Source: a virus
Lineage: Duplodnaviria > Heunggongvirae > Uroviricota > Caudoviricetes
Length of the DNA: 19,760 bases
Reading direction: 5' to 3' (one strand)
Virus record (IMG/VR): IMGVR_UViG_2698536651_000010
Span: 1 to 19,760 of that record
Made by a program: the position numbers and the translations under genes. The notes beneath the pieces were generated by a model that was given only the letters and a program-made list of their open reading frames with translations, made no database searches and was not told where the DNA came from. Below, piece after piece: positions 1 through 18,707 of this stretch (its first letter is position 1; each line of letters starts with the position of its first letter).

Positions 1-603
1 CTACGCCTCCGGCAGTTCAGGCCAGATGACATCCGGCGCGGTGCTGGTATCTGTTGCCGTCACCGCGTCAATGTAATCCAGCGCAGCGTTAAGTCGGGCG
101 GTTTCTGCCTGCGTCAGATTCCGTCCGGCCTGCAATTTCAGCTGAATCAGACTAATGGAAGCCATTGCATTATCAATCAGTGACTGACGCTGTGCTTCTG
201 CCGCGCCTACTGCGGCGCTATGCTGTGCCACAGTATCTGTTACCCATTTCTCACCATCCCATTCATCTTATGGCGTTAACGGGGCGATAGTGGTTGTATT
301 TTCAGGATAATCACCCGGAGCGGTGATTTCTTTCGATTCTCCTGTTTCGGTGCTATAGATGATTTCACCGCGATGGTCTGGCACATATTCCCATGAGTTA
401 AAATCTGCAGAACGGCAGATTGCATAACCAGCTTTATGTGTAACTGGCGCATCTAAACAAGAACATGCCGGGATACCGACGCCAACCGCAAGATATTCAG
501 TTGACGTGGAAATATATTCCCGTGTTTCACCATCGTAGTTATAAACGGTAACATCCCCTGCCTTTGTTGCAATAAGCTCACTATTTAATATTGCTTTATG
601 CAT
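1..603 (-). pseudogene. Tail fiber assembly protein (Tfa/gpG family), split by an in-frame TAA at 268-270
   Basis: ORFs 268..603 and 1..231 are in the same frame on the minus strand, separated only by TAA at 268-270. Translation continues ...APLTP*DEWDGEKWVTDTV... and ends with the Tfa-typical C-terminus ...TDTSTAPDVIWPELPEA. The start codon overlaps the gpH stop (ATGA at 601-605). Confidence 0.7.
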
Positions 604-2150
604 CAGGCTGACCTCACGATATAGTTAAATGCAATATTACGCGGACGCGTTTCTGAGGCTGCGGCACCTAAACCAGCCACTGATTGTTTATATGTTTTAA
701 AGGTTCCATAATCCGGTGCTGGTAATCCGGCATCGTTTGTGTTTCCTCTTTTGATAATGTCAGTGCCACTATTTACCCAGCTTTCATCAAAATAGAAATT
801 AATCGTTGCATCAGTCACAATCGTGGATCTTGACGGTAATCCATGAGCATGATCCTCCGTTGCATACCCCTGAATACTTAAAATAGAGCGACCTGTATCA
901 ATCCCCCGTCCGTCATCCCAGCCACGAATAAACTCACCACGTAAATCAGGCAATTTATTTGCCGGATAAGCCTTTGCTAGTTCCGGGTATTCTTCAGCAG
1001 AAAAAGCTGCACCATTGCATTTCAGCCAGCCTGTTGGCGGTGTGGCTGAAGGCCACGGAACAGGGACGCCAACAGGTAATGCAGAGCCTTCTCCCAAACC
1101 AAGGTATGTGAGAAGACCAGCTACATCCTTTCCACTCAAATTGGTAAGCGTATTGTCCAGCGGTTGTTTACCTGACAGCGCATTAAGCATTGTCGTGGCA
1201 AAGTTCGGATCATTCCCCAGCGCCGCTGCCAGTTCGTTCAGCGTATCCAGTGCCGCAGGTGCAGAACCCACCATTGCTGCAATTGCCGATTTCACAAAAG
1301 CGGTAGTGGCAATCTGTGTATTGTTGACCGACTGCGCCGCCGTGGGAGCTGTTGGCGTTCCGGTGAGTGCCGGACTCGACAGCGGCGCTTTTTGTGCCAG
1401 TGCATTGTTAATGGTGGTACTGAATTTCGGATCATTGTTAATGGCTGCGGCTATTTCTTTCAGCGTGTCCAGCGTGGCTGGCGCACCATTAATAAGAGCC
1501 GTCAGAGCCGCCTGAACAAACGCGGCGGTCGCAATCTGCGTGGTGTTATTCCCTGCTGCTGGCGTTGGCGCTTTGGGTGTCCCGGTAAACGTCGGACTTT
1601 CTTTGGGTGCATACTGTGAATGCGGGTCCGGTGCGGCAAGATGTTTTGCCATCTGATCATCCGCGTACACCTTCAGCTCCAGTACCTTATCATCCACATA
1701 CTTGCGGGTTGCCAGCACTACGGCAGGGTCGATTTTCAGGGTGATATTGTCCGTGCTGCTGGTAATCAGCACCATGCGCACGGTCTGGGTACGCCCGCTG
1801 CCTTCAGCCAGTTTCGGCTTATAGCTTTCCGGGCAGTTTCCCACGGCAATCAATGCCCCGGACTCATCAAACAGGCCCACTTCACGTATCCACCAACCGC
1901 CCTCGTTTTCAGGGATCACCTGTTCAGCAATAATCTGGCTACTGTTCTGCGGGTCGATATAAAGCATATTCAACGCAGCCCGGCGTTTCTCATTTACCAG
2001 TGCCGTCTGCTTTGCGTCCGGCGTCGGTAATACTCCGCCGCCATCGCCGACCGCCATATGGGTAATTTTTAGCGGCACACCGAGCGCGGCGGCGCTGGCA
2101 AGTTTCGCCGCGCCAATATCCGTCAGCAGGGTATAAAATTTTGTGCTCAT
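603..2150 (-). CDS. H: Tail fiber protein (P2 gpH-like N-terminus, tandem fibre repeats, tail-collar-type C-terminal domain)
   Basis: 515 aa. N-terminus MSTKFYTLLTDIGAAKLA...MAVGDGGG...AESYKPKLAEGSG resembles the conserved P2 gpH N-terminal domain. Two ~70-aa tandem repeats (TGTPxAPTxA...NNTxIATxAFV...DPxFxTT). C-terminus has a tail-collar-like motif (GWLKCNGAAFSAEEYPELAKAY...LPDLRGEFIRGW). ATGA overlap with gpI upstream. Confidence 0.9.
   Translation of the reverse strand: MSTKFYTLLTDIGAAKLASAAALGVPLKITHMAVGDGGGVLPTPDAKQTALVNEKRRAALNMLYIDPQNSSQIIAEQVIPENEGGWWIREVGLFDESGALIAVGNCPESYKPKLAEGSGRTQTVRMVLITSSTDNITLKIDPAVVLATRKYVDDKVLELKVYADDQMAKHLAAPDPHSQYAPKESPTFTGTPKAPTPAAGNNTTQIATAAFVQAALTALINGAPATLDTLKEIAAAINNDPKFSTTINNALAQKAPLSSPALTGTPTAPTAAQSVNNTQIATTAFVKSAIAAMVGSAPAALDTLNELAAALGNDPNFATTMLNALSGKQPLDNTLTNLSGKDVAGLLTYLGLGEGSALPVGVPVPWPSATPPTGWLKCNGAAFSAEEYPELAKAYPANKLPDLRGEFIRGWDDGRGIDTGRSILSIQGYATEDHAHGLPSRSTIVTDATINFYFDESWVNSGTDIIKRGNTNDAGLPAPDYGTFKTYKQSVAGLGAAASETRPRNIAFNYIVRSA
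1160..1600 (-). repeat. Tandem intragenic direct repeat (~220 bp unit) encoding the tail fibre repeat modules
   Basis: Near-duplicate DNA blocks, e.g. aagttcggatcatt at 1201-1214 and aatttcggatcatt at 1423-1436, followed by similar ...ttcagcgt(a/g)tccag... stretches. They correspond to the two protein repeats in gpH. Confidence 0.7.
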
Positions 2151-2752
2151 GGATTCACTCTCATTGTGTCAATAACATGGACCGCCCCGCCTTCATGCGC
2201 GGTGCCACCGGAAATAATCGTTTCGTTGATATACGGATAGATCGTGATTTCTTCGCCAAGATAGCTGGCGGCTCCCACCCAATGCGGGCCGCTGGTCTGC
2301 AGATTGATGGACATGCCGATCATGTGGCGGCTACATGGTTTGGCATCGCTTATCAGTCGCTCAAGTTCCAGATAGGTATCTTCAGTGATGCCATGGTCCT
2401 GCACTCCGATATCCAGGCGAAACGTGCCCGGTGCCTCTCCGGTCTGCCACCACTCAATAATGCGGATCAGAAAGCCGAACGGCTCCACCACCCGCCGCAC
2501 GGCACTGGTGGTCCCTTTATGCTGATGAATATAAAAAGCATCCTTCACCACCTGGCGCTTGACGCTTTCTGTCCAGCCCTCGTCCCAGCGATCCACAGAG
2601 AACGCCCAGGCGAGATAAGGCAGGAAACTGACCGGACAGGTTGCCGGATTCCACAAGTCACGAAGCGGCACCTGCAGATCAGAAATCCCGCTGCAGGTTT
2701 GCGCCAGTCGGCGCTCCAGTGGTGTTGAACCCGGTGGCAGCAGACTATTCAT
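2147..2752 (-). CDS. I: Baseplate assembly protein gpI
   Basis: 201 aa. MNSLLPPGSTPLE...RDLWNPATCP...LPYLAWAFSVDRWDEGW...GTFRLDIGV...ERLISDAKPCSRH matches the P2 gpI family as I recall it. ATG 2750-2752 preceded by AGGA; stop overlaps the gpH start. Confidence 0.85.
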   Translation of the reverse strand: MNSLLPPGSTPLERRLAQTCSGISDLQVPLRDLWNPATCPVSFLPYLAWAFSVDRWDEGWTESVKRQVVKDAFYIHQHKGTTSAVRRVVEPFGFLIRIIEWWQTGEAPGTFRLDIGVQDHGITEDTYLELERLISDAKPCSRHMIGMSINLQTSGPHWVGAASYLGEEITIYPYINETIISGGTAHEGGAVHVIDTMRVNP

Positions 2753-3422
2753 CCGTTCCTCCGTTGGTTACGCTCCACTGCGTACATGATGCCGCCTGTG
2801 TTTTGTTCAGGACCACATCCGCCAGAGGAGAAGCCAGCTCATCGGACTGCTCTTTTTTGGTAAACAGCGCCGTGACGCGGGCAAACAGGGACGGTTTGTC
2901 GTCCTGGATTTCTTCCAGTTCGATCACCGTTTCCTCTGCAGCGGTAAAGAGATTGGCAGGATTCTGCTTGCGGTTTGCCAGCGGGTTATGGGCTGCACTG
3001 GCGCTGAATGTCAGCATTTCCGTACCCAGACTGGCAGGGTCATCAGTGGCAGCCAGGCCGACCAGGTAGGCTTTGCCCGTATCAGCGAACTTCGGGCTGA
3101 CTTCCATAGAGGTGAATAATTTCTGGCCTTTTTTCACCAGTTCCACCAGGGACTCCGTTGGCTCAACGTCGGCATACAGCGCCATCTTGCCTGCCAGCGG
3201 ACCTGCCGTGATTTCTTCAGCAAACAGCGCCGTCACCTTGCCGTAGCGGTTAAAGGTGCTGTCCGGCAGATAAGACTTGATGTGCTCAAGGTTAATCAGC
3301 GCGGTATACACCGCCGGGTTGTAGCTGGCTGCCATCTGTTCCAGCCATTCACGCTGGATTTCGCGTCCGTCGGTGGTGGCACCTTCCACCCCGATGCGAA
3401 AACGCTTTGCTTTCACTGTCAT
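2745..3422 (-). CDS. O: Capsid scaffolding protein gpO-like, C-terminally truncated and running directly into gpI (likely deletion junction)
   Basis: 225 aa. MTVKAKRFRIGVEGATTDGR...INLEHIKSYLPD...YGKVTALFAEEI...SMEVSPKFADTGKAYLVGLAATDDPASLGTE... resembles P2 gpO (about 284 aa) over roughly the first 190-200 residues. The tail ...SCTQWSVTNGGTDE* has no O-like character, and the stop overlaps the gpI start. Confidence 0.7.
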   Translation of the reverse strand: MTVKAKRFRIGVEGATTDGREIQREWLEQMAASYNPAVYTALINLEHIKSYLPDSTFNRYGKVTALFAEEITAGPLAGKMALYADVEPTESLVELVKKGQKLFTSMEVSPKFADTGKAYLVGLAATDDPASLGTEMLTFSASAAHNPLANRKQNPANLFTAAEETVIELEEIQDDKPSLFARVTALFTKKEQSDELASPLADVVLNKTQAASCTQWSVTNGGTDE

Positions 3423-3500
3423 GAGCCGTGCTCCGTTAGAAAAAACTTACTGGAGCCTTATGGTTGCGGTGATGGGGGCAGTGAAACAATGCGCGGTATT

Positions 3501-3518
3501 TGTACCGACAACCACACA
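3501..3518. promoter_or_regulatory. Candidate Ogr/Delta-type late-promoter activator site (TGT-N12-ACA dyad) in the O-P divergent region
   Basis: TGTACCGACAACCACACA at 3501-3518 fits the TGT-N12-ACA element of P2-family late promoters. Its centre is about 55 bp from a plausible leftward start for gpO. Confidence 0.4.
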
Positions 3519-3564
3519 AACCGCAGGCGGGGAAAGCCTTCATTCAAGGCTGTAGGTTTGTGCC

Positions 3565-5331
3565 ATGAACACCACACTGACACCCGCAGATCTCGATCCC
3601 CGTCGGCAGGCCATGCTGCTGTACTTTCAGGGATACCGCGTAGCCCGCATTGCTGAAATGCTGGGCGAGAAAGTTGCAACCGTTCACAGCTGGAAAAAAC
3701 GCGACAAGTGGGGTGACTATGGGCCGCTGGATCAGATGCAGCTCACCACCGCCGCACGCTACTGCCAGCTCATCATGAAGGAGCACAAAGAAGGGAAAGA
3801 TTTCAAAGAGATTGACCTGCTGGCGCGCCAGTCTGAGCGCCACGCGCGGATCGGCAAGTTTAACAATGGCGGCAACGAATCCGACTTAAACCCTAACGTC
3901 GCCAACCGCAACAAAGGCCCACGCCGTCAGCCGGAAAAGAATGTTTTCACCGATGAGCAGATTGAGAAGCTGGAAGAAATCTTCCATTCCTCCATGTTCA
4001 ACTACCAGCGCCACTGGTGGGAAGCCGGAAAAACCAACCGCATCCGCAACCTGCTGAAGTCACGCCAGATCGGCGCGACCTTTTACTTTGCCCGTGAAGC
4101 CCTGATTGACGCCCTGCTGACCGGACGTAACCAGATTTTCCTTTCCGCCAGCAAGGCACAGGCCCACGTCTTTAAGCAGTACATCATCGACTTCGCCAAA
4201 GAAGTGGAGGTGGAGTTGAAAGGCGATCCGATGGTGCTTCCTAACGGGGCCACGCTTTACTTCCTCGGCACCAATGCCCGCACGGCCCAGAGTTATCACG
4301 GCAACCTGTATCTGGATGAATATTTCTGGATACCGAAATTCCAGGAACTGCGCAAAGTGGCTTCCGGTATGGCTATTCACAAGAAATGGCGACAAACCTA
4401 TTTTTCCACGCCATCCAGCCTGACACACAGTGCTTATCCGTTCTGGTCCGGTGCGCTATTCAACCGTGGGCGCAACAAAGCCGATAAGGTGGACATCGAC
4501 CTGTCCCACAGCAATCTGGCCCCCGGCCTGCTGTGCGCAGACGGGCAATACCGCCAGATTGTCACCGTGGAAGATGCAGTGCGCGGCGGATGTAACCTGT
4601 TCGACCTCGATCAGTTACGCATGGAGTACAGCCCGGACGAATACCAGAACCTGCTGATGTGCGAGTTTGTGGACGATCTCGCGTCTGTGTTCCCACTCAG
4701 CGAGCTGCAGGCGTGCATGGTGGACAGCTGGGAAGTCTGGACCGACTTTCATGCACTGGCACTGCGCCCATTTGGCTGGCGCGAAGTGTGGATCGGTTAT
4801 GACCCGGCGAAAGGTACGCAGAACGGCGACAGTGCCGGATGTGTGGTGGTGGCACCGCCAGCCGTGCCGGGCGGCAAGTTCCGCATTCTTGAGCGTCACC
4901 AGTGGCGCGGGATGGACTTTCGCGCCCAGGCTGACGCCATCAAAAAACTGACCGAACAGTACAACGTGACCTATATCGGCATCGACTCAACCGGCGTTGG
5001 TCACGGAGTTTATGAGAACGTGAAAGCGTTCTTTCCTGCCGTCCGGGAGTTTGTCTACAACCCCAACGTTAAAAACGCCCTGGTACTCAAGGCCTACGAC
5101 ATTATCAGCCACCGCCGTCTGGAGTTTGACGCCGGGCACACCGACATTGCGCAGTCATTCATGGCAATCCGTCGCGCCACCACCGCCAGTGGCAACCGCC
5201 CGACCTATGAAGCCAGCCGCAGCGAAGAAGCCAGCCACGCCGATCTGGCCTGGGCAACGATGCACGCACTGTTTAACGAACCGCTGCAGGGCGAATCCGC
5301 CAATACCAGCAATATTGTGGAGATTTTTTGA
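3565..5331 (+). CDS. P: Terminase ATPase (large) subunit gpP
   Basis: 588 aa. N-terminus MNTTLTPADLDPRRQAMLLYFQGYRVARIAEMLGE... is typical of P2 gpP. Length matches. Stop TGA overlaps the Q start (TGATG). Confidence 0.95.
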   Translation: MNTTLTPADLDPRRQAMLLYFQGYRVARIAEMLGEKVATVHSWKKRDKWGDYGPLDQMQLTTAARYCQLIMKEHKEGKDFKEIDLLARQSERHARIGKFNNGGNESDLNPNVANRNKGPRRQPEKNVFTDEQIEKLEEIFHSSMFNYQRHWWEAGKTNRIRNLLKSRQIGATFYFAREALIDALLTGRNQIFLSASKAQAHVFKQYIIDFAKEVEVELKGDPMVLPNGATLYFLGTNARTAQSYHGNLYLDEYFWIPKFQELRKVASGMAIHKKWRQTYFSTPSSLTHSAYPFWSGALFNRGRNKADKVDIDLSHSNLAPGLLCADGQYRQIVTVEDAVRGGCNLFDLDQLRMEYSPDEYQNLLMCEFVDDLASVFPLSELQACMVDSWEVWTDFHALALRPFGWREVWIGYDPAKGTQNGDSAGCVVVAPPAVPGGKFRILERHQWRGMDFRAQADAIKKLTEQYNVTYIGIDSTGVGHGVYENVKAFFPAVREFVYNPNVKNALVLKAYDIISHRRLEFDAGHTDIAQSFMAIRRATTASGNRPTYEASRSEEASHADLAWATMHALFNEPLQGESANTSNIVEIF

Positions 5332-6359
5332 TGGGAAAGAGTAAGAAGAACCGCGCTGCGGCGACGAAACAGATCCAGCTTAAAAGTCAAACTACAGCCG
5401 AAGCATTCAGCTTCGGCGATCCCGTTCCTGTTCTGGACCGCCGAGAATTACTGGACTATGTGGAATGCGTACAGATGGACCGTTGGTATGAGCCACCAGT
5501 GAGTTTCGACGGGCTGGCGCGCACCTTCCGCGCTGCCGTGCATCACAGTTCCCCGATTGCAGTAAAGTGCAACATTCTGACCAGTACCTATATCCCTCAT
5601 CCGCTGCTCAGCCAACAGGCTTTTTCGCGTTTTGTGCAGGACTATCTGGTATTTGGTAACGCCTATCTGGAGAAACGCACGAACCGCTTCGGTGAAGTTA
5701 TCGCCCTTGAACCTGCGCTGGCAAAATACACCCGACGCGGGTTAGACCTGGATACCTACTGGTTTGTGCAATACGGTATGACACCCCAGCCGTATCAGTT
5801 CACGAAAGGCAGCATTTTTCATCTGATGGAACCGGACATCAACCAGGAGATCTACGGCCTGCCCGGTTATCTTTCTGCCATTCCGTCAGCTCTGCTCAAC
5901 GAGTCCGCCACGCTGTTCCGCCGCAAGTATTACATTAACGGCAGTCATGCTGGCTTCATCATGTACATGACCGATGCCGCGCAGAACCAGGAGGACGTGA
6001 ACAACCTCCGCAATGCGATGAAAAGCGCCAAAGGCCCTGGCAACTTCCGCAACTTGTTTATGTACTCGCCTAACGGCAAAAAGGACGGGCTTCAGATCAT
6101 TCCTCTGTCAGAAGTCGCGGCGAAGGATGAGTTTCTGAATATCAAGAACGTGAGCCGGGATGACATGATGGCGGCGCATCGTGTGCCACCGCAAATGATG
6201 GGGATTATGCCTAATAATGTTGGAGGGTTTGGGGATGTAGAGAAAGCTGCTAATGTTTTTGTGAGGAATGAACTCATCCCTTTACAAAAAAGACTAGAAG
6301 AGCTGAACGAATGGATAAATGAAGAAGTTATTAATTTCGTGAGTTATTCAATTACCTAA
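5331..6359 (+). CDS. Q: Portal protein gpQ
   Basis: About 342 aa from ATG 5331 (the ORF track starts at TTG 5328). Size and position downstream of gpP match the P2 portal; translationally coupled to P. Confidence 0.9.
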   Translation: MGKSKKNRAAATKQIQLKSQTTAEAFSFGDPVPVLDRRELLDYVECVQMDRWYEPPVSFDGLARTFRAAVHHSSPIAVKCNILTSTYIPHPLLSQQAFSRFVQDYLVFGNAYLEKRTNRFGEVIALEPALAKYTRRGLDLDTYWFVQYGMTPQPYQFTKGSIFHLMEPDINQEIYGLPGYLSAIPSALLNESATLFRRKYYINGSHAGFIMYMTDAAQNQEDVNNLRNAMKSAKGPGNFRNLFMYSPNGKKDGLQIIPLSEVAAKDEFLNIKNVSRDDMMAAHRVPPQMMGIMPNNVGGFGDVEKAANVFVRNELIPLQKRLEELNEWINEEVINFVSYSIT

Positions 6360-6364
6360 TAAAC

Positions 6365-6395
6365 AAAAAGGCCATTAAATGGCCTTTTTGTTTTT
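6365..6395. terminator. Bidirectional rho-independent terminator shared by convergent Q and retron RT
   Basis: AAAAAGGCCATTAAATGGCCTTTTTGTTTTT: a GC stem flanked by an A-run and a T-run. It overlaps the last codons of the RT. Confidence 0.7.
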
Positions 6396-7349
6396 AGGAA
6401 AAAGAACACTTAGATCAACCCCATATGTTTCAGACATTTTATTTGAGAAAGTCATCAATTTTCTATAGTTTTTCTTGTCTACACTTTTAACAAACGCAAT
6501 AAGTCCTTTAACATGTTCGAAATCAGAATTTCTTTTTACCGCCAGATAATGGATCTTACTTCTAATTTCGCGATAACGTATTCTGCCAACTCCAACATTA
6601 TCAATAGATAAAACGAGCCCAGTAACCTCCTTCCTTGCTTTGGGGCCATGAATCGCAACTTTATTATAATTAACCTTCAAAGATTCACTTGGTATTATAG
6701 AGCATACAAATGACTTAGCTTTAAGTATTTTTTTTAAAGATTGAGCAGATAAAGTCAAATCATCGGCATATCGAGTAAATACGATCCCCTTACTACCTGC
6801 ATATCCATGTATTCTATAATCTAATTTAGTTAAAACAAGATTCGCAATCTTTGGAGAAGATGGTGCACCTTGAGGTAGCGAACCATTAAATGAACACAAT
6901 CTTGCTAAAGCATTAGAAATAGTAGAGTTATACCCCAGAGAATGAAAAACAGTATAGATTTTCTCTATCAGAATAGTATTAAAACAATCTTCTAAATCAA
7001 TATTTAATACATAGTTAGCTCCTACATGTGGGCTGGCATTATTTAATATTGATTGCCCTTTTTCAAAGCCTTTGGAAAATGGGGATGAATGTAACTTATC
7101 AAGGATGTTTCTTAACACCCAAGCTTGCAATGCCTTCAGCTCACGTGATGGCTGTGAAATGATGCGGGATCTCTTGCCATCTCTTTTTGGCAACGAATAA
7201 ACCTTATAGTATTTGTCAGCACGATAAATGTACAACCGGAGTATGTCTACTGATAAACGCATTTCTCTAGACATATCCTCTAAAGAGGACATAACAGGCA
7301 ATCCAAGATTGCGTAAGCGAAAAACCTGAGATGGTGTTGCGGAAGTCAT
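6375..7349 (-). CDS. Retron-type reverse transcriptase
   Basis: 324 aa. RT motifs: NIDLEDCF (motif A), LPQGAPSSPKIANL (motif B), RYADDLTLS (YADD catalytic motif C). Also the retron-associated NAxxH (NASPH) and VTG (EVTGLVL) motifs. ATG sits 2 nt after the a2 repeat, whose AAGGG acts as the SD. Region is AT-rich. Confidence 0.9.
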   Translation of the reverse strand: MTSATPSQVFRLRNLGLPVMSSLEDMSREMRLSVDILRLYIYRADKYYKVYSLPKRDGKRSRIISQPSRELKALQAWVLRNILDKLHSSPFSKGFEKGQSILNNASPHVGANYVLNIDLEDCFNTILIEKIYTVFHSLGYNSTISNALARLCSFNGSLPQGAPSSPKIANLVLTKLDYRIHGYAGSKGIVFTRYADDLTLSAQSLKKILKAKSFVCSIIPSESLKVNYNKVAIHGPKARKEVTGLVLSIDNVGVGRIRYREIRSKIHYLAVKRNSDFEHVKGLIAFVKSVDKKNYRKLMTFSNKMSETYGVDLSVLFPKNKKAI

Positions 7350-7351
7350 GA

Positions 7352-7510
7352 GCGCACCCTTACGTCATAAAAATCAGATTCCGAAGTGAAAGGAGAACAT
7401 CGGGAGATGTTCTCCTTTCAATGAGGGAACTGGTAAAACTTCAGATTGTATGTAGGACAGCGAAACACTGTCCAGTGAACTTCCGGAGAAGCCACTCGCT
7501 AAGGGTGCGC
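7352..7510 (-). ncRNA. Retron msr-msd non-coding RNA flanked by a1/a2 inverted repeats
   Basis: 11-bp inverted repeats GCGCACCCTTA (7352-7362) and TAAGGGTGCGC (7500-7510). Perfect 15-bp stem with 4-nt loop at 7387-7420 (msd-like hairpin). Short hairpin GGACAG/CTGTCC at 7455-7473 (msr-like). A G follows a1 in the transcript. Confidence 0.8.
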
Positions 7511-8404
7511 AAAACGCATCCTATCATAGTGGAGTATTGTTTTACCACGATTTTCGAAGTTCATCATATCCAGTCGTAGATTGTCCAAAGCCTTTCGATC
7601 AAAATGCTCAAGAACGTATTGCATACCAATTTCTGTAATATGGTATCCTTGAACTGAACGTCTAATTATTGACTCTTTAATCAAGCTTGAAATAACAGAC
7701 TTAACGATAATTTCACAAAGAATAGCATCTTTCTTAGTCACCAAATGTAATAGCTCATATAGAAGTATATTATCTATACCATCCATCAAATATATACACG
7801 GCAGTATAAAACGCCGAGCGTGAAGAATATTATCTATTGAGTGATTAACTGGGTTATTTTTTTTGATGTCATTAATACTTTTTATAATTCTATTATAAAA
7901 AGCTTTACCTGTACTCAAGCTTTCAAGAGTCGACAAATCTCCTCGCAATACTGCACCGCTATTAGCACGCCGAAGCAGTTTTATAGGCCCATAATTAAGA
8001 AAGCTTTTTTTAAGTTTGAATTTGTCATCCTGAAGACATATCATTTTTTTGCACAGTTTTTCATTATTTGAAAATGCGCCCAATTCAGCGAAAGAACCTG
8101 GGCTTTCAGGAATAATAATAATAACATCGACTGAATCAGCTAAAATATTCTCCAAACTTAAAAGACTATGCTGACCTTGTCCATACAAAAGCTCATCAAA
8201 CAACTCCTCAGGATAGAATATTTCTATTTTGGGATGTGTTTCCAACACTCTTTTAACTTTATTTCTACAAAAAAACGGATCATTCAAATCGCCCCCGCAA
8301 AGGAAAACAGTAACTTTATTTTTATTTTTCTGTTGAAAAAGCCGACTTTTAATTAAATTTGCCAGATTTTGCTTCTGCAACTCCGGAATAGTTTTCTTTT
8401 TCAT
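7499..8404 (-). CDS. Putative retron effector: N-terminal NDT-like (nucleoside deoxyribosyltransferase/LOG-like) domain plus C-terminal probable winged-helix DNA-binding domain
   Basis: About 301 aa from ATG 8402-8404 (track ORF starts at GTG 8410). Glycine-rich strand VTVFLCGG and IIIPESPGSFAELGAF resemble the NDT/LOG-type active-site region. Stop TAG (7499-7501) lies inside the a1 repeat. Very AT-rich. Confidence 0.7.
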   Translation of the reverse strand: MKKKTIPELQKQNLANLIKSRLFQQKNKNKVTVFLCGGDLNDPFFCRNKVKRVLETHPKIEIFYPEELFDELLYGQGQHSLLSLENILADSVDVIIIIPESPGSFAELGAFSNNEKLCKKMICLQDDKFKLKKSFLNYGPIKLLRRANSGAVLRGDLSTLESLSTGKAFYNRIIKSINDIKKNNPVNHSIDNILHARRFILPCIYLMDGIDNILLYELLHLVTKKDAILCEIIVKSVISSLIKESIIRRSVQGYHITEIGMQYVLEHFDRKALDNLRLDMMNFENRGKTILHYDRMRFAHP

Positions 8405-8918
8405 ATCCACTTTTCCTCAGAATGATCCCATCTTTTATACAACATTCAAATCTGAGTTTCCACCCGCTGCGCGCGCTCGTATCCCCGCCACGCCTGCCCG
8501 CTTTATGTAGTGGTTTTCATGCACCTGCATGACATAAGCAAAAGCACGCCAGTTCTGGCTGACTTCAGCAAAAACGATCCTCAAACGATCATGCGATCTC
8601 ATGCGTCATAGTCATGCGCTGCCAAGGGAAGCGTAAATCCGTATCTGAATGACTGCTGAAAAGCGAATCATACGGGTTTACAAAGATGAAAGTTCGCTGT
8701 GAGCGAGAAGCGAACCTTGCAACTTTGTTGGCACAGTTTTAACACCAATTTTTTGAGGATAGCTAGAAAACTTGTGGCATAAAGGATCAGTTTCCCGATC
8801 GAACTTTTTATCAAGAAGGGCTCATAGCAATCGCCAGAAGAAGTGATGTTAAAGTATTGAGCTCGGCGTTAAGATTAAATAAATTACAGACTAATCCAAT
8901 GTTTTGTGGAAGGATAAG

Positions 8919-9962
8919 ATGGCAGTCAAGCGCGCATACTACGGTAACGATAGTGACCGAGACTACTTAGAGCGGATATTTCAGTCAGCTAACATTAACT
9001 TTCTCATCGGATCAGGTGCATCCCTCCCAGCGATTAAAGTACTGGGGACAATCGAAACGGATCTTCAGCAGCTTATTAATGATGAACAGGAAGATGAATA
9101 CTTAAGGATGGCAGCTGACTTTTTGTCAGATGTTTGGCTACCTCATGAATGCATGTTGAAGCGCGGCTACGGCACCCCCTTCGCACCTCAGGTGATCACC
9201 GATTTGGAATGTACCCGTGCAAATTATGATGCATTTATGTCTTCACTGGAAAAGATACTGACCCGCCGCCGAACTGGCCTACTTCCGAGGCGTATTAACG
9301 TTTTTACAACTAATTATGATTTATTCATCGAAGAAGCTGCCACACGTAATAACAATATTCTTTTTAATGATGGATTCAATAGAAGAGCAAGTATTTTGGG
9401 AGATGCGGAATTTGATGCGGGTAGCTTTAATCATTCTGTAAGTGCAACCGGAAATCTGTATAATTATAAAGTTGAGCTTCCTACTGTTAACCTTATAAAA
9501 CTTCATGGTTCGCTCTCTTGGCAGCATTCTAAAGGGAAAATCATTTATCGTATTGCAGATATTAAGCCGCTTGACTTTCCCACCCTAGCCGAAATGAAAG
9601 GATGGGTACTTGCTCATGCACTTATTCTTCCACGTAAGGAGAAGTTTAAAGAGACTCTACTACAGAACGTTTATTATGATTTACTGAGAACCTATTCCAA
9701 CGAGCTTGATAAAGAAGCAACTTTACTAATTGTCTTTGGGTTCTCATTTGCTGATGAGCACATTGAAACGATAACTAAAAAAGCCCTGCGCAACGCCACC
9801 CTGAAGCTACTGATCTTTGCTTTCGATGAGGCCAGTGTTAACGGCTTTATGGAGAAATTTCGGGATTACTCAAACGTAGAGATTATTTATCGGCCGGGAA
9901 GAAATGTTGATTTTCCGGTAATGAATAACATTATCACGTGCTATCTGGGAGGCTCGAGATGA
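8919..9962 (+). CDS. SIR2-family (sirtuin-like) NADase of a SIR2-HerA defence pair
   Basis: ATG 8919 with AAGGA SD (track ORF starts at TTG 8904). Motifs FLIGSGAS (NAD-binding glycine loop), VFTTNYD, KLHGS (catalytic His), LIVFGFSFAD. Stop overlaps the HerA start (ATGA). Confidence 0.85.
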   Translation: MAVKRAYYGNDSDRDYLERIFQSANINFLIGSGASLPAIKVLGTIETDLQQLINDEQEDEYLRMAADFLSDVWLPHECMLKRGYGTPFAPQVITDLECTRANYDAFMSSLEKILTRRRTGLLPRRINVFTTNYDLFIEEAATRNNNILFNDGFNRRASILGDAEFDAGSFNHSVSATGNLYNYKVELPTVNLIKLHGSLSWQHSKGKIIYRIADIKPLDFPTLAEMKGWVLAHALILPRKEKFKETLLQNVYYDLLRTYSNELDKEATLLIVFGFSFADEHIETITKKALRNATLKLLIFAFDEASVNGFMEKFRDYSNVEIIYRPGRNVDFPVMNNIITCYLGGSR

Positions 9963-11818
9963 GCAGGCATTTTACTGAAGAGGAAGCGGTGCTCCGTATA
10001 GGCGAAGTCTGTGAGGTTTCTGGACGCGCTGTGACAATTTTGGTCGATAAAAACAAAAATCTCAGTGACTTGTTTTATCAGGGAAAAGTTCTAAGAAATG
10101 TATCAGTGGGTAGCTTCATTGAGATCAAAAAAGGTTTCATGAGCCTGATCGGCAAGGTTGAAGCGGAACGAATCATTGAGGAAAAACATCTCGCTGGGAG
10201 CGGCAGTGATGCCTGGCGATATCGGCGATACCTGACCTCTACTCTTACGGGTTACATTGATCGTACTGGTTGCTTCATTGGTGGTTCGCGTGAACTACCT
10301 CTCATCGGCAATGAAGTCTTCGTGGTAACTGAAGAGATGATACAGACGGTTCATCAGATAGCTGATGCAGACGAAACTGTAATGAGGTTTACTCGTACAG
10401 ATCTTGAAGATATTGAAATTGCACTACCAATCAATGGTCTTATTAATTCCCACATTGCCATTTTCGGTAATACAGGCAGCGGAAAGTCAAATACCCTAGC
10501 CGCGCTATACAAAGCAGGTATTGCCCAAGTTAAACATATTCTCGGCAACCACTTTAGTGAAAGATGCAAATTTATTCTATTCGACTTTAATGGAGAATAT
10601 ACTGCCCCACGCTGTATTACTGACGAGAAGACGGTTTATAATCTCAACACGCACCATGCAAATGGTGACAAACTTCCTCTACCCAGAGAGGTTCTACTTG
10701 AGCATGATATGCTCTCAGTTCTAACCGATGCAACAGACAAAACACAGAAACCTTTCCTGAAGAGAGTTCTTGAGTTTCGCAAGAAAGTGATGACCGCTGA
10801 CAATCCTCTTGAGTTTATGCGCAATATCCTGAAGAAAAAAGTCAGACAAAATCTCTTTAGTAGCGACAAACCCAAATGCGATACTATAAATCAGTTTCTT
10901 AGCCCAATTTTCAAAGATGACCCAGAACTTATATCTGATCTTGAGTATCATTCAACTGCATATAAATGGAAATTGAGGGGTGGTAGTATTTTCAATACAG
11001 AAGCTGATACTGAGCGCTCCTATCTATTCAGTCTTGCAAGCAATTTTTCATTTAAAACTGATATGATTGAAGAACTGTTGGACTTTATGTACTTACAGTT
11101 AATACAGGAATATTTATCTAACAAGTCTAACCCTGAACATATTTCACCAGTTATAAATAGAATGAGTGCTAACCGTAAAGATATAGCCAAAATATTTGAT
11201 ACTTCCGGACAGTCTGATTTTTGGGGTGAACATAATTTCACGGTTGTGAATCTAAATATGGTTAATATAACCATGAAAAAAACGCTTCCTCTTTTGATAG
11301 CCAAGTGGGCTTACAATATGAAGAAAATGTCTACAGAGAAATCTACACTGCACATCATTATAGATGAAGCCCACAATATTTTGTCTAATACTTCTTTTCG
11401 GGAAACGGAAAGTTGGAGAGATTATCGTCTGGAAACTTTTGAGGAAATCATAAAGGAGGGGAGAAAATTTGGAGTTTTTATCACAATTTCCAGTCAACGC
11501 CCTAATGATATATCGTCGACAATCATATCCCAAGCACACAATTATTTTATTCATCGCCTTATTAATCAGAATGATCTGTACGCAATTGAAAAATCAGTAT
11601 CATATATAGATCGACTGACTGAAGAGTCGATTCCAACGCTATCTACAGGAACCTGTATTTTTAGTGGTATCGTCTGCCCCATGCCGCTCAAATTAAGGGT
11701 AGCTGAACTTCCAATTGAAGAAAAACCTAAGAGTAATACTATTTCCTTCAACGATTTAATACCTGAGAGGCTGGGAGAGGATGACCAGAGCGACTACGTA
11801 ATAACCAGCCCTCACTAA
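9959..11818 (+). CDS. HerA-like (FtsK/HerA superfamily) ATPase, partner of SIR2
   Basis: ATG 9959 with GGGAGG SD (track starts at GTG 9938). Walker A GNTGSGKS and Walker B/DEAH-like HIIIDEAH. About 620 aa, typical of HerA partners in SIR2-HerA systems. Confidence 0.85.
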   Translation: MSRHFTEEEAVLRIGEVCEVSGRAVTILVDKNKNLSDLFYQGKVLRNVSVGSFIEIKKGFMSLIGKVEAERIIEEKHLAGSGSDAWRYRRYLTSTLTGYIDRTGCFIGGSRELPLIGNEVFVVTEEMIQTVHQIADADETVMRFTRTDLEDIEIALPINGLINSHIAIFGNTGSGKSNTLAALYKAGIAQVKHILGNHFSERCKFILFDFNGEYTAPRCITDEKTVYNLNTHHANGDKLPLPREVLLEHDMLSVLTDATDKTQKPFLKRVLEFRKKVMTADNPLEFMRNILKKKVRQNLFSSDKPKCDTINQFLSPIFKDDPELISDLEYHSTAYKWKLRGGSIFNTEADTERSYLFSLASNFSFKTDMIEELLDFMYLQLIQEYLSNKSNPEHISPVINRMSANRKDIAKIFDTSGQSDFWGEHNFTVVNLNMVNITMKKTLPLLIAKWAYNMKKMSTEKSTLHIIIDEAHNILSNTSFRETESWRDYRLETFEEIIKEGRKFGVFITISSQRPNDISSTIISQAHNYFIHRLINQNDLYAIEKSVSYIDRLTEESIPTLSTGTCIFSGIVCPMPLKLRVAELPIEEKPKSNTISFNDLIPERLGEDDQSDYVITSPH

Positions 11819-11831
11819 TTAACAAAGTGCT

Positions 11832-11851
11832 GAAGCGGTAACGACCGCTTC
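11832..11851. terminator. Candidate hairpin between convergent HerA and DinI-like genes
   Basis: GAAGCGGT-AACG-ACCGCTTC, an 8-bp perfect stem. No strong U-tract on either side, so terminator function is uncertain. Confidence 0.3.
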
Positions 11852-11962
11852 TAGCACAAAGCGGACGATCACTTATCAAAATGCCCGCCCACCTTACGCC
11901 TCGTTTCACTCGTTGCCCAAACTAGCCCCCATCAGAATGAATCCTCCTGGAGGCAACGTTTC

Positions 11963-12196
11963 TTAATGCAGCCAGCTGTCGTCTTCCCACACTTTCTGCA
12001 TAATTTTCATCACTTGTTTTCTTTCTTCATCCAGTTGCAGTCCGGTCAGTTCCACACCGTTAGAGCTACCTTTGCGGATACGAATTACCGTTTTGGGATA
12101 CAGGGGGCGCAGATTGCGGTAAAGCTCGGATTCAAGGGCGTCCATGGTAGACTGGCTAATCTTCTGCTCTTTATCGATCATTATTTCAATGCGCAT
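11963..12196 (-). CDS. DinI-family protein
   Basis: 77 aa from the internal ATG (MRIEIMIDK...), with GAGGTG SD. Aligns in pattern with E. coli DinI (MRIE..., ...DAL..EL..., ...EERKQ...W...D.W). The track ORF carries an unlikely 24-aa N-terminal extension. Confidence 0.7.
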   Translation of the reverse strand: MRIEIMIDKEQKISQSTMDALESELYRNLRPLYPKTVIRIRKGSSNGVELTGLQLDEERKQVMKIMQKVWEDDSWLH

Positions 12197-12206
12197 AAAA
12201 GTCACC

Positions 12207-12395
12207 TCAGCTGATGATATCCATTGAGCGGTTGTATTCGTGGCTTCTGATTTTTGCCATGAGTTCATCTGTCAGTTCAGAAACCCACTGCAAAGCCAGC
12301 CCCTTCTCTTCATCACTACACTCACTAGCCGCTACAAGCTTAAGAAAAAAATCAATGCGCTGGAGCTTCAAAGACTCCAAAAAATAGTCCTGCAT
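12207..12395 (-). CDS. Small hypothetical protein, first gene of the LexA-controlled operon (possible Tum-like antirepressor module)
   Basis: 62 aa. ATG 12393-12395 preceded by a strong SD (AGGAGG). Lies about 43 bp downstream of a perfect LexA box. The Tum-like role is inferred from position and SOS control only. Confidence 0.5.
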   Translation of the reverse strand: MQDYFLESLKLQRIDFFLKLVAASECSDEEKGLALQWVSELTDELMAKIRSHEYNRSMDIIS

Positions 12396-12437
12396 CTTTC
12401 CTCCTATAACACCAAATCAATACTGTATACATAACCA

Positions 12438-12453
12438 CTGTTTATATTCACAG
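12438..12453. promoter_or_regulatory. LexA (SOS) box
   Basis: CTGTTTATATTCACAG is a perfect CTGT-N8-ACAG palindrome with an AT-rich spacer, just upstream of the small ORF/DinI-like operon on the minus strand. Confidence 0.7.
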
Positions 12454-12468
12454 TATATAATAATCTTA

Positions 12469-12499
12469 CTGATGTAAAACGTTTTTTTACGTTCATCAG
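12469..12499 (-). terminator. Candidate terminator hairpin downstream of repA
   Basis: CTGATG...CATCAG outer stem with inner AACGT/ACGTT pairing and a T/A-rich loop, followed by AT-rich sequence. Imperfect stem. Confidence 0.35.
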
Positions 12500-12547
12500 C
12501 CTGATATGCCTGGTATTATTAAGAGCACGAATTGTTAAACCGCGTAA

Positions 12548-14962
12548 TTAATACAGATCCCGCCACTTATCATCTTCCTGCAAACGCTGGTTCCGATAGA
12601 AGATACGCAGGCCTGCTCCTGACGGAATACTGCCGCCGCGAAGGAGTAAATCGACCTCTTTCTCGCTACTATCAAATCCTCTGGACTTCAGCTCATAGAC
12701 GAGCTGCTGTCGCTGATGGTCTGTAATTCGCTGTTTGTAGTCTTTACGCCGTTTCGGTTTAACCAAGCATAACCTTGCTGCCAGTTCCCGGCGCTCTTTT
12801 TTGCTCATACTGTGCAGGTAATCGTGCAACTCCTTGTCATCCATGCGGGTGATATCCGTTCTGGTATCCCCATCAGCTGATTTGTCTTTCCCTTGTTGAT
12901 TCAAATTTTCAGCAAGGGGACAGTTATTGCCACGAGTCCAAGGGGCGCAAGCGCCCTGGTCGGCTGCCGCCTCCTGAACGTCAACGGCCTTACGAACTAT
13001 TTTCCACTTCACTGCATGAGTGCAGATCTTGCCCTCTGCAATGGGTGACCAGATGCCATAAATACGAATACCGTGATCACCATAGGCGGTCGGCTCTTCG
13101 TTGATTTCATAAGCGGTTCTGATCAAGTGATATTTGCGGGGAACCAGTACGCCGCCCTGCTTCATGATGTAGGTGGCAAAACAACCAGCATCAGCAGCAG
13201 CCAGGATGGCATCAAGGCGCGGGTTATCCAGTACCGGCGCACCTGCTTTTTTGTCACCCTGTTGCCTTGCCGCCTGACCAGCCAGCAATCGCAGTTCACG
13301 GTAAGCCTGACGCCCCGGAATGCCAAAGAAGCGGAATTGCTGAACACGATGCAGAGACGCCCAGGCATTAACGTATTCAGCGTTATCACGCAGGGATTTA
13401 CCCGTTTCCTTACTGATCTCGCCAGCCAGACCACGCCCGTCAATATTCTTACTGATATATTTCGCAATGTAGCTTGTCGGCGTTCCTTTGCGCGGGTTTA
13501 TCAGCTCAGACTTAAAGCGTGGCCCCGTGTTATTGCCCAGCTCCTCGCGGTCTTCACGGATGGCAAACTTACGCAACAATGCAGTAATGGCGCGGCGGTC
13601 TTTTTTGCGCATGAAACACAACAGGTGCCAGTGAACTGTGCCGTCATGATGCGGCTCAGCCACCCGCACGCCATACCAGCGCAACCCGGCTTTGTGCATA
13701 GCCTTACGAAATGCAGCAAACATGCCGACCAGATAATCGCTGCTTTGTCTTACTGTCGCGTTGGTCCAGGTCGGGTTTGGCCTACCGTTATTTAGCGTGG
13801 AATGGAAACGTGACGGACAGGTGATGGTGTAGAAAACGGCGCAGTCACCACGCATTTCCGCGATAAGCTCCAGGCCTTTAACACAGGTCATCATCTCGTT
13901 GCGGCGATGCGCCGGGTTGCTGCTGCTGGCGTTTACCACATCCTCCATGTTCAGCGTGTCGCCGTCTTCGTTCACCAGTTCATGAGAACGGAAAAACTCC
14001 AGCGACTTACGGCGCTGCTCACGTTTATGCATCACGGCTTCATAGCTGACATAGGGAGATGCTTTTTTGCTGACCAGGCAGACAGCACGCAACTGCTCTT
14101 CCCGCCATTCGCAACGCATCTTCCATAATTTCCGATACCACCAGTCGGCGCACAGCATACGCGCCAGCGACCCCGGAATGAGTTCATAGGGCACGGGTTT
14201 ACGGCGGTTTCTTTTCCGGCGGAGTTGCTCAAACGCAGGCGGTATGACATCCAGTCGCAGGGTTTCTGCTGCCACCTTTTCCCATGTCTTGCGGATTTCT
14301 TCTGGCTTAACGTCATCGGTGGCATACAAATCACCACAAGCGGCATCAAGGCACATGCTCATATGCGCAGCGACAAGGGTAGACAGGCGCTTCACCTGAT
14401 CCTGACTCATTTCAGGCAGGATAAGCAGGCCATCCAGCCCTTCATGGCTTGCCATAAAGCGAAAAGAAGTGGATAGCTGACAGTCGCGGACATGCTCCAG
14501 TCGTTCCAGACATGGCTTAATCGTCTCACGCAAATAGCGGGAATAAGCCTTTGGCCTGCCCAGGCTGCTGAAATATTCAATACGTTGCATCAGCGGCTTG
14601 CTGATATGGGAAGGCTGGGCATTGACGTCAGCCAGAATGACCATGTCTGGATTAAAACGCTGCTGCTCATGCGCCAGCTTTGCCCGGCTAATGAGCTTAT
14701 CCTGCTCCATTTCGCGCTGGACAGGATCACGGGATTCATTAAAGAAATAACGCTCCCAGACCTGATCACTCAGTGCCTCGCGGCGCAGTTGTTCCTGCTC
14801 GTTATCGGCAGCGTACAGAGTGATCAGGTTTGAAAGTGCAGAAACCGGCGCAACTTCCGCCGGGTCCTGATAAGGGTTAATAGCCTTTTTCGGGCTGTTC
14901 CATGAGAATGCTGCGGCGACCTCGTTAAAGCCGCTGCAGTTGTTCATATCATCATGGCTCAT
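12548..14962 (-). CDS. A: Replication initiation endonuclease (P2 gpA / 186 RepA family, HUH rolling-circle type)
   Basis: 804 aa. HUH-type motif ...[11 protein letters not shown].... Large size and position at the end of the early operon fit the family. ATGA overlap with dam upstream. Confidence 0.9.
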
Positions 14963-15816
14963 GCACGCACTCCGTATACGGCTGAACTATCCACGCCACG
15001 CGAAGGATCAAATCCCACCCAGCAGCGCGGCCCGGAAACAGCGATGATTTCAGTTGCAGATTTACTCTCACCAGCTGCTACGCCGATGCTGCGTTTTGCC
15101 TTGATGTAGTGGTGAGTAAAATTGCGATACAGCGAACGGATCAGGGATGTGTCACTGTTAGAAACAATGACCGGATGTCCTTCTGATGACCGATGTTCAA
15201 GCACAGATGCCAGGCGATACTGGTCATCTTCAGTGAAGCCATCAGTGTGATAGCCGGAAAACGTACCGTCATAAGGCGGATCGCAATACACAACATCCCC
15301 CGCGTGCAACATCGCCAGCGTTTCATCGAAGCTGGCGCAGATAAACGTTGCCCGCTGGGCTTTCTCTGCAAATGCGCGAATTTCTTTTTCAGGGAAATAC
15401 GGATTTTTATAATTACCGTAGGGAATGTTGAAATGCCCGCTCTTGTTATAGCGACATAACCCACGGTAACCATGTCGATTGAGATACAGGAAATATACCG
15501 CTTTCATGAAATTAGTAATTTCAGTTGAGTAGTTAAACTCCTGCCTTATGTTGTAATAAGCCACCTCCCTGTTTGCTTCCTCAAATAAAACTCTGGCGCG
15601 AGATATAAATAATTCACAATCAGCGGCAACCTTTTTATAGAGGTTGATTAAATCAGGATTAATATCCGCAACCAGATAGCTGGGGTAATCCGTTTCCATC
15701 ATCACTGCACAGGAACCCGCGAAAGGTTCAACCAGTCGCAGGCCAGCAGGAAGGTGTTTTTTCAGTTCTGGCATAATGGCGGTTTTATTTCCCGCCCATT
15801 TCAGGATGGTGCTCAT
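14959..15816 (-). CDS. dam: DNA adenine methyltransferase (Dam-like, N6-adenine)
   Basis: 285 aa. N-terminal SAM-binding motif LKWAGNK and catalytic DPPY. Translationally coupled to both neighbours. Confidence 0.9.
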
Positions 15817-16040
15817 ACAGCACCTCCGTTGTAATGTTTACCTTTCAGCTCTGCGATTTCCTGACAGGTAATGCAAAGCTGCACTCCCGGAATGGCGCGG
15901 CGGCGTGCTGGCGGAATTGGCGCTTCACACTCTATGCAAAGCACGCGAGACACGCCCGGTGTTTTGGCACGGGCAGCACGGATGTGGCGCTGGCGTTCTT
16001 CTTCAACGCGCTGCTGTACGAGATCCATTGCATCAGCCAT
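15813..16040 (-). CDS. DksA/TraR-family C4 zinc-finger protein
   Basis: 75 aa. Cys pairs CIECEAPI...CITCQ with a basic region between them. Stop overlaps the dam start. Confidence 0.75.
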   Translation of the reverse strand: MADAMDLVQQRVEEERQRHIRAARAKTPGVSRVLCIECEAPIPPARRRAIPGVQLCITCQEIAELKGKHYNGGAV

Positions 16041-16273
16041 CAGTGGATCTCCTGCGCTTCGTTCTGGATTGCTTCAGCAGTCACACGCAGCAGTTCTGCC
16101 GCTTCGACGTGGTTTAGTTGGCGGGATGTGATATGACACGCCAGGCTATCAAGGCGAGCTGCCATTGCTTCAGCCCTTGCCCGGCGTTCTTCCAGACGAG
16201 CCTCTGTCAGTAAAATATTAAGCCCTGCATCATCCGGTCCGGTTTTAGTCGTGAGGGTTTCAATATTACGCAT
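16040..16273 (-). CDS. Hypothetical early-operon protein
   Basis: 77 aa from ATG 16271-16273 with AGGAGA SD (track starts at TTG 16279). Stop overlaps the TraR start. No recognisable motif. Confidence 0.55.
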   Translation of the reverse strand: MRNIETLTTKTGPDDAGLNILLTEARLEERRARAEAMAARLDSLACHITSRQLNHVEAAELLRVTAEAIQNEAQEIH

Positions 16274-16340
16274 AATCAATTCTCCTGAATTTAGATAAAG
16301 GGATGCCCGGCGGGTTTACGCCATTAATTTCATTAGTTGG

Positions 16341-16682
16341 TTAATTCGGCATGGTTAGCCGTCTGGGAAATAAGCTCACCACTACACGAAAATGATTCAT
16401 TGCTTTAATCAACTCCCGCTTTTCGTCAGTGGTCAGCTCATTAATGCTGATGCTATGACGTTCAGCTGGAATTTTTGCCATAAAGAATATGGCAGCCAGT
16501 GCCCTTTTATTTTGTTCATTATTGATATCCCATGGATCACGCATATCTTTAATAAACCGCTCAAGCTCTGACTCAATATTTAGGCCAAAAACTTTCGCCC
16601 TTAACTCCGCAATGTGATTAAGTCCATTCAGGCGTTCACCGGGGCTTAATGGAACAGTCGCCGCAGTGCCTTCAATAGCCAT
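16341..16682 (-). CDS. Hypothetical early-operon protein
   Basis: 113-aa ORF in the operon orientation. Overlaps the upstream small ORF by about 36 nt in another frame. No recognisable motif. Confidence 0.5.
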   Translation of the reverse strand: MAIEGTAATVPLSPGERLNGLNHIAELRAKVFGLNIESELERFIKDMRDPWDINNEQNKRALAAIFFMAKIPAERHSISINELTTDEKRELIKAMNHFRVVVSLFPRRLTMPN

Positions 16683-16846
16683 TTGTTCCCCCGTTTTTTC
16701 GTAGATAGTTCTGCCAGCAATTCATCTTGTGAACGGCACGGATGCCAGCGTTTACCATCCTCCCCCATGATCCAGCCGTGACCGTAATGCATTGCCGGGC
16801 TTTGTTTAACCAGCAGCGATGCAAATGATGGTTCTTTCGTCAGCAT
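16646..16846 (-). CDS. Hypothetical small protein at the position of 186 fil
   Basis: About 66 aa from ATG 16844-16846 (MLTKEPSFAS...), with GAGGTG SD overlapping the cII stop. The track ORF start at 16876 would overlap cII. Confidence 0.5.
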   Translation of the reverse strand: MLTKEPSFASLLVKQSPAMHYGHGWIMGEDGKRWHPCRSQDELLAELSTKKRGNKWLLKALRRLFH

Positions 16847-16853
16847 AAGCACC

Positions 16854-17363
16854 TCACAGCAAACCAAATGAAGCACCGAGGCCAGTCACGGTATCAACTG
16901 CACTCGCCATCGCAGGATTAGCCTGTAAACGGGCCTGCAATGAAACAGCCGCCAGCGCCATCAGTCGTGTTACAGAGTTAATGCTGCTGATAGCATCACG
17001 ACGACCGGCACAGGTTTTTACATCGCCAGACACCGCACCTGCAGCAACACGCCCGATCTCTGCGGTTGCACTCATGACGTAATGTGGCAGTTTCTCTTTT
17101 GCCACCTCATTAATCGGTACACATGGCAGACAATAAATCTGTGCCAGAAAACCATCTACCAGCGTTGAATCTTCAGTCAGATCGGTAAGCAGCCAGATTT
17201 CTGGTGCGGTTAATAAATGAGGCTGAGCTGGGTTCAGCTTGTTCCGCAGAATCTGCACATTCATGCCTGCACGTTCTGCCAGTTGCACCAGATTGTGGCG
17301 CAGTGCAAATGCACGACAGGCTTCATCAAAATGTGGATGTTTGGAAACTTGGTAATCAAACAT
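16854..17363 (-). CDS. cII: CII-like lysogeny-establishment activator (phage 186 CII family)
   Basis: 169 aa from ATG 17361-17363. [20 protein letters not shown]...[13 protein letters not shown]...AGAVSG matches 186 CII closely as recalled, and the length agrees. Confidence 0.85.
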
Positions 17364-17395
17364 GGTCAATGCCTCTGATGTATTTCAGAATCGAA

Positions 17396-17617
17396 CTAAT
17401 TAAGGTTTAGATTGCATTCTGAAAGCGCATCAACGGTCATTGCTGCTATGTTGATCATCACTTTTTCGCGTTTTTTATCTTTGCGCAGACGGTGACGGAT
17501 AAGGCGTCCATCAGCCAACATGTCATTGATGGTATCGATGGATAGCCCTGTCAGCTCGCTATAGCGTTCAATAGTCACATGAGGCGTGGTAAGAGTGATT
17601 GAAATGTTAGGTCTCAT
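17396..17617 (-). CDS. Apl/Cox-like excisionase and transcriptional regulator
   Basis: 73 aa. First gene of the operon diverging from the repressor gene. HTH-like segment [21 protein letters not shown]. Assignment is mainly positional. Confidence 0.6.
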
Positions 17618-18312: not shown

Positions 18313-18327
18313 TACCGGGAGGAAATT

Positions 18328-18519: not shown

Positions 18520-18707
18520 CTTTTGCTTTTATATCTGCGCCTAAAATAAAAATGAGCCACAGGTTAACCGCAAAAGTTACATGATCACATAGCAAAAAGA
18601 ATAGCCTACTTCATTATGGCTTCAGTGAGATGTATGGTCGCAGGATTTCATACATTGACACTGGTTATACATACAGTAAAAATGCTCTCTATTGGAGGGC
18701 ATTTTTT

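Follow-up and report, generated by a model that had tools for sequence, protein, structure and literature searches.

The window, i.e., the whole 19,760-nt stretch of DNA analyzed here, holds most of a P2-like prophage that is reversed relative to the usual P2 map (Table 1). Tail-fiber and baseplate genes are followed by an ORF composed of parts of two late genes, by the large terminase subunit and portal genes on the other strand, and by a cos region that is flanked by two defense systems; beyond these lie gpA, Dam, a set of small early genes between Dam and CI, CI itself and the integrase. The tyrosine integrase, an extremely common protein also present in other genomes, is accompanied by direct repeats of the 14-nt att core AACAAAAAACCCAT, found at 5115 of locus L011 and at 13942 of locus L002, both on one contig and 20,367 bp apart. 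Within the divergent P/O region, a TGT-N12-ACA dyad at 3501-3518 matches what we take to be the consensus of the Ogr/Delta activator box in the P2 literature; the region is too diverged from P2 to be aligned with the activator site annotated there.

Table 1. Features of the window, in window positions (aa, amino acids; parent, the intact prophage of E. coli VG888-46E9).
Feature	Position	Strand	Remarks
Tail-fiber assembly gene, 200 codons	1..603	-	TAC>TAA nonsense codon at 268-270
gpH-type tail fiber	603..2150	-	515 aa, same length as in parent
gpI baseplate protein	2147..2752	-	201 aa, same length as in parent
Chimeric ORF	2745..3422	-	gpO residues 1-194 + gpJ residues 272-302, in frame
J-derived 3' end of the chimera	2745..2838	-	third base of codon 195, 30 more codons, stop; native J/I overlap inside
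Deletion junction	2839..2840	.	2-bp microhomology TC common to both parental flanks
O-derived part of the chimera	2841..3422	-	protease domain with D18/H47/S105 + middle region
P/O divergent late-promoter region	3423..3564	.	identical to parent, no SNP; putative function
gpP large terminase subunit	3565..5331	+	588 aa, same length as in parent
gpQ portal	5328..6359	+	342-343 aa, same length as in parent
Retron, RT type II-A + NDT-like effector	6375-7349 and 7499-8410	-	
cos region	8469..8617	.	cohesive-end junction 8526/8527 by homology to the Cartapus genome ends
SIR2 + HerA	8904-11818	+	
gpA	12548-14962	-	
Dam	14959-15816	-	
CI	17737-18312	+	
Integrase	18708-19760	+	Pfam Int_N + Phage_integrase

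Searching 5,426 complete E. coli genomes turned up an intact counterpart of this element. The prophage of E. coli VG888-46E9 (NZ_CP128581.1, 3,069,1xx-3,104,4xx), which lies between rcdA and ybjL, covers 100% of the window at 99.7% identity and is referred to as the parent below. It has the site, the 14-nt att core, the gene order and the cargo (a St85-family retron plus SIR2+HerA) of the window's element, but it carries a full late gene set in 35.3 kb; stretches of 6,652 bp and 8,267 bp of this are missing from the window's element, which has one nonsense codon in addition. The correspondence between the two falls into two blocks, with window 1-2840 equivalent to 11501-14340 of the VG888-46E9 locus L005 (4 SNPs, 99.86%) and window 2839-19760 equivalent to L005 20991-37912 (47 SNPs, 99.72%); over 19.8 kb there are thus 51 SNPs, and the 6,652-bp gap is the sole indel. 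In the parent the att cores are 35,286 bp apart, a difference of 14,919 bp (6,652 + 8,267). The SNPs themselves are clustered, with 16 in ~400 nt of the portal gene (window 5387-5784), 11 in ~130 nt of the Dam gene (window 15202-15328) and near zero elsewhere, and the two clusters look like short recombination patches from other P2-like phages.

More distant relatives are phage Cartapus (NC_070909, Peduoviridae, Elveevirus), the Klebsiella phages Kp48xx and KP12, and the E. coli W prophage at rcdA/ybjL. Their late and replication genes are collinear with those of the window at ~95-96% nucleotide identity, and they share its cos and the same 8-nt overlap between J and I; in contrast to the window's element, they are complete genomes and carry other hotspot cargo, and the integrase and immunity region of Cartapus have diverged from those of the window. 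Nucleotide collinearity with P2-like (Peduoviridae) genomes, at 96% for Cartapus and 99.7% for the parent, extends across head, tail, replication and immunity genes of the window's element, which lacks the complete P2-like late gene set that a viable phage requires (O, N, M, L, X, lysis genes, R, S, V, W, J, FI, FII, E, T, U, D, ogr).

The ORF next to gpI encodes 225 aa, against 284 aa for P2 gpO (L006 3167-4021) and 277 aa for the nearest intact homologues. A protein alignment that includes P2 gpO identifies residues 1-194 as gpO, and the last 31 residues, ELASPLADVVLNKTQAASCTQWSVTNGGTDE, are not O-like but match, residue for residue, the C-terminus of gpJ, the Cartapus baseplate protein. In agreement with this division, residues 6-204 of the chimera match positions 2-199 of the 268 positions in the Pfam profile Phage_GPO (PF05929; E = 9e-94), and profile positions 200-268 find no match in it; over the whole 225-aa ORF, identity to P2 gpO is 47%. 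The last 31 codons are all that is present of the full Baseplate_J fold (~302 aa), and a Pfam J-family match to the chimera was not obtained. The stop codon (2745-2747) and the gpI ATG (2750-2752) sit in the 8-nt overlap ATGAATAG by which J and I are also joined in intact phages. This being the native overlap of J, the fusion partner is J and not I, and the overlap has been preserved because the fusion is in frame with J.

The break in the chimera corresponds to about residue 197 of P2 gpO and nearly coincides with the boundary of the scaffolding domain. Upstream of it, the N-terminal GPO protease domain is present with an Asp/His/Ser triad: D18, H47 and S105 of the chimera align with D19, H48 and S107 of P2 gpO, the first two of which we take to belong to the catalytic triad. 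P2 gpO consists of a protease domain (1-141), a middle region (142-194) and a scaffolding domain (195-284), the last of which is needed for procapsid assembly of gpN, and S107 is its protease-active residue (PMC7552001). Compared with P2 gpO, the chimera aligns over its N-terminal 194 residues and keeps the triad positions, but the C-terminal scaffolding domain (P2 195-284) is absent, swapped for the 31 residues of J that follow directly on residue 194. Since the capsid gene N is gone, the chimera would also be without partner or substrate. We read the 225-aa chimera as a by-product of deletion, i.e., as the product of a pseudogene and not of a working gene, and the 225-aa "GPO family" ORF is better annotated as an O'::'J fusion pseudogene. 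In principle, an Ogr-type activator acting in trans could still allow transcription of the O'::'J-I-H operon.

The position of the junction is fixed by comparison with intact phages. Megablast against 50,697 phage records returns two separate blocks that lie 7 kb apart in intact Peduoviridae: window 2839/2842-6337 matches the O-P-Q region of Cartapus and of the Klebsiella phages Kp48xx and KP12 (~96% identity), and window 1-2840 matches the J-I-H-tail-fiber-assembly region of intact Peduoviridae (94-96% identity). On the O side homology stops at 2839-2842, on the J/I side at 2840; a three-way alignment places the switch at 2839/2840, with which the base-by-base comparison with the parent agrees. 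On the coding strand, the TC of the junction reads GA and supplies the first two bases of codon 195, the third base being J-derived. The loss amounts to exactly 6,652 bp relative to the parent and to 7.2 kb relative to Cartapus. This pattern across the junction is not due to chance, as flanks that are 99.7-99.9% identical to one intact prophage have 6,652 bp missing between them. Within +/-300 bp of the breakpoints, the flanks have no common word longer than 10 nt, the length expected for shuffled sequence. This 10-nt word, CCAGCTCCAC, was considered as a recombination substrate and rejected, being no longer than in shuffled sequence and out of register with the junction.

An earlier note on this DNA, made from the sequence alone, had described a gpO-like ORF about 60 residues shorter than P2 gpO, without O-like character in its last 20-30 residues and with a stop that overlaps the gpI start, and had put a junction within 2755-2850. 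All of this is confirmed by the alignments above. The scaffold-baseplate fusion that it proposed holds in that the scaffold gene is fused to the baseplate region, and needs correction as to the partner, since what is joined in frame is a 31-codon 3' piece of J and not I. Its figure of ~10 kb lost between O and I proved too high.

The 6,652-bp deletion, which runs from O codon 195 to J codon 271, removes 12 whole genes (N, M, L, X, holin, endolysin/lysozyme, lysB, lysC, R, S, V and W) and cuts into two more, taking 83 codons from the end of O and 271 from the start of J, or 90% of J. By P2 annotation, it also takes the terminator of the O operon and the promoter of the V operon.

A second deletion lies outside the window. 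The exact 225-aa protein is found on one contig only, the 62-kb Logan contig ERR2203427_248, from which the window probably comes and which leads from window position 1 leftward through an inverted fragment of a second tail-fiber assembly gene into the 3' part of ogr; beyond ogr follow attR and then ybjL, ybjM, grxA, nfsA, rimK and potF. Alignment to references places this second junction at 13702-13704 of L002, the ERR2203427_248 locus, ~280 nt to the left of window position 1, at a 3-bp ATC microhomology within imperfect GGTA(A)TC surroundings (L002 13698-13704). The matched blocks beside it are ~8.26 kb apart in the VG888-46E9 parent, and subtracting the first deletion from the difference in att-core spacing gives the exact size of the second, 8,267 bp. 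This second loss joins the inverted tail-fiber assembly gene to ogr codon 19 and takes the alternative fiber tip, the invertase, FI, FII, E, E', T, U, D and ogr codons 1-18, a tally of nine whole genes plus parts of ogr and of the second tail-fiber assembly gene. Sheath, tube and tape measure are among the genes removed, and the lost ogr codons include the CPLC cysteine pair and take away the zinc-finger start of this late activator. A further lesion lies within the window, where position 268 is T and both references (E2348/69 and VG888-46E9) have G, which turns a TAC codon of the tail-fiber assembly gene into TAA; the ORFs at 268-603 (111 aa) and 1-231 (76 aa, with a spurious GTG start) are the two pieces of this gene.

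Comparison of gene content with the parent upholds the claim of the earlier note that capsid, lysis and most tail genes are deleted, except that J has not been wholly deleted. Likewise, the terminase that was thought to be kept is represented by its large subunit P, and the small (endonuclease) subunit M is deleted. The same account of a defective prophage that keeps portal, immunity, replication and defense cargo is well founded: int, CI, CII, Fil, Dam, gpA, P, Q, I and H have parental lengths, cos is kept as well, and the att cores, int, CI, the replication genes, cos, P, Q, the retron and SIR2-HerA show no indels relative to the parent. The damage nevertheless exceeds what had been described, by the 8.27-kb deletion outside the window and the nonsense codon at 268-270.

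Collectively, this evidence makes it very probable that the locus is a P2-like prophage in which an internal deletion left a cryptic remnant with an accidental O::J chimera. A P2-like (Peduoviridae) prophage would have inserted itself between rcdA and ybjL in an E. coli chromosome and would then have lost 6,652 bp, probably by illegitimate end joining or replication slippage at the 2-bp microhomology. The frames of O and J matched by chance to give a 225-aa O(1-194)::J(272-302) product, in which the gpO protease domain is kept and the capsid-binding scaffolding domain lost; the second, 8.27-kb deletion and the nonsense codon are added damage. Of a prophage of 35.3 kb, a cryptic remnant of 20.4 kb is left, which represents the ordinary decay of a known prophage type and not a new system. 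The element is unable to build tails or particles or to lyse the cell: no capsids can be made because N, L and the scaffolding domain are absent, cos cannot be cut because M is absent, and the late genes cannot be activated because ogr is truncated. The chimera is probably not expressed, and the remnant would still confer immunity and defense.

The junction was not found a second time. BLAST with a 401-nt probe gave no place spanning it in the 5,426 complete E. coli genomes. In this search, pieces up to ~700 nt apart were joined into one place. Of the genomes, 1,071 carry this O/J sequence, and in none of them are the O and J-3' halves of the probe united at a coverage of at least 80%; therefore, neither the same nor a comparable junction occurs in these 1,071 genomes. 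In line with these results, exact scans found the junction 31-mer and 24-mer to be absent from GTDB species-representative genomes and the 24-mer to be absent from IMG/VR and JGI metagenomes. Given this absence from genome and contig collections, the deletion is private to one sample.

A junction that is present in a single short-read assembly (Logan contig ERR2203427_248), and nowhere else among the collections searched, could also be an assembly artifact, the strain having an intact prophage whose O was joined to J by the assembler or by a chimeric read. De Bruijn graph assemblers, however, need real k-mers across the join to produce such a contig, and flanks that share 2 bp at the junction, with no word longer than 10 nt within +/-300 bp, leave a repeat-collapse misjoin without a substrate. 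Additionally, a second deletion junction, independent of the first, and a nonsense mutation lie on the same unbroken 62-kb contig, as in a decaying element, whereas a coexisting intact copy should have branched the graph or broken the contig at both junctions. An artifact is thus improbable. A natural lineage in which a short gpO directly precedes I, so that the ORF would be full length, accounts for the uninterrupted reading frame and for that alone. In the nearest relatives, at 99.7% and 96% nucleotide identity, O is 277 aa long and N, M, L and the remaining genes come after it, which means that, for its lineage, the ORF falls short of full length; moreover, its last 31 residues are exactly the C-terminus of J, and the exact protein is confined to one contig. 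On the identity of the J C-terminus and the comparison with the intact parent, this reading was rejected as hardly conceivable.

The remnant might alternatively have been selected for a function, as a domesticated and helper-dependent defense island that can be mobilized (cos+, int+, rep+). Ogr supplied by an incoming P2-like phage would activate P, Q and a protease-only O::J in trans, with I and H now behind the O promoter, and either the island could be mobilized or the chimera could interfere with capsid assembly of the incoming phage. The retained parts are compatible with such a role, since none of cos, int, the replication genes and the two att cores is disrupted when compared with the parent, the P/O late-promoter region is unchanged, the two defense systems are kept without indels and the fusion is in frame with the catalytic triad kept; an in-frame fusion that preserves the I overlap and breaks near the boundary of the scaffolding domain is readable as non-random. 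However, frames match in one case out of three and the fusion occurs only once, which gives selection no support; nor does the architecture recur (the probe halves remain unjoined in 1,071 complete E. coli genomes), and a nonsense codon in the tail-fiber assembly gene speaks for neutral decay. Compared with the intact prophage, nothing has been inserted in the window, and it has no satellite-type genes; genes of the kind that P4-type satellites have of their own in place of the helper's structural genes, e.g., for capsid-size redirection or a primase-type replication gene, are absent, the tested ORFs being all P2-type or hotspot cargo. Size is a further obstacle: at 20.4 kb, or ~58% of the parent genome, the element would, by what is known of P2/P4 packaging, fit poorly into a P2-size head as a monomer, and its dimer would be too long. 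Selection for such a role is, in our judgment, very improbable.

As a decayed prophage, the locus offers a base-resolved case of early prophage decay by two microhomology deletions and one nonsense codon. Every lytic function and most virion functions have been lost, and integration, immunity, replication, cos and two anti-phage systems are untouched; the locus should be scored as a cryptic prophage and not as an inducible one. Cryptic or defective P2-type remnants are known from E. coli, examples being the ogrK/D' remnant of K-12 and the defective P2-related prophage of E. coli B. They resemble the window's element in belonging to the P2 family, in having been inactivated by internal deletions and in persisting in the chromosome, but they have other break points and other retained genes, and the window's element is young, at 51 SNPs from the parent over 19.8 kb, with both att sites kept.

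The two defense systems of the remnant lie in a region, gpA-cos-gpQ, that is a known defense hotspot of P2-like phages (PMC9122126), described there without mention of degraded P2 prophages. In the retron, located between Q and cos, PADLOC identifies the RT as RT_II-A (E = 5e-123) and the effector as NDT_II-A (E = 3e-97), a pair to which RefSeq gives the name "retron St85 family". A scan of the window at Rfam gathering thresholds gave no match at all, and hence none to a retron msr/msd RNA; the retron non-coding RNA presumably lies in 8411-8468. On the opposite side of cos, PADLOC identifies the SIR2 and HerA pair (E = 6e-211 and 6e-267). Surveys of defense genes in P2 hotspots should therefore expect cargo to persist in remnants that are no longer viable as phages.

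Another position of variable content lies between CI and int. In the window it holds only a 63-aa YdcA-like ORF (18328-18519, +). The corresponding position in relatives is occupied by a KAP NTPase (E. coli W), by a SNIPE/T5orf172 protein of 426-558 aa (L007-L010) or, next to int, by a RES-domain protein (Cartapus), and thus looks like a third variable cargo slot.
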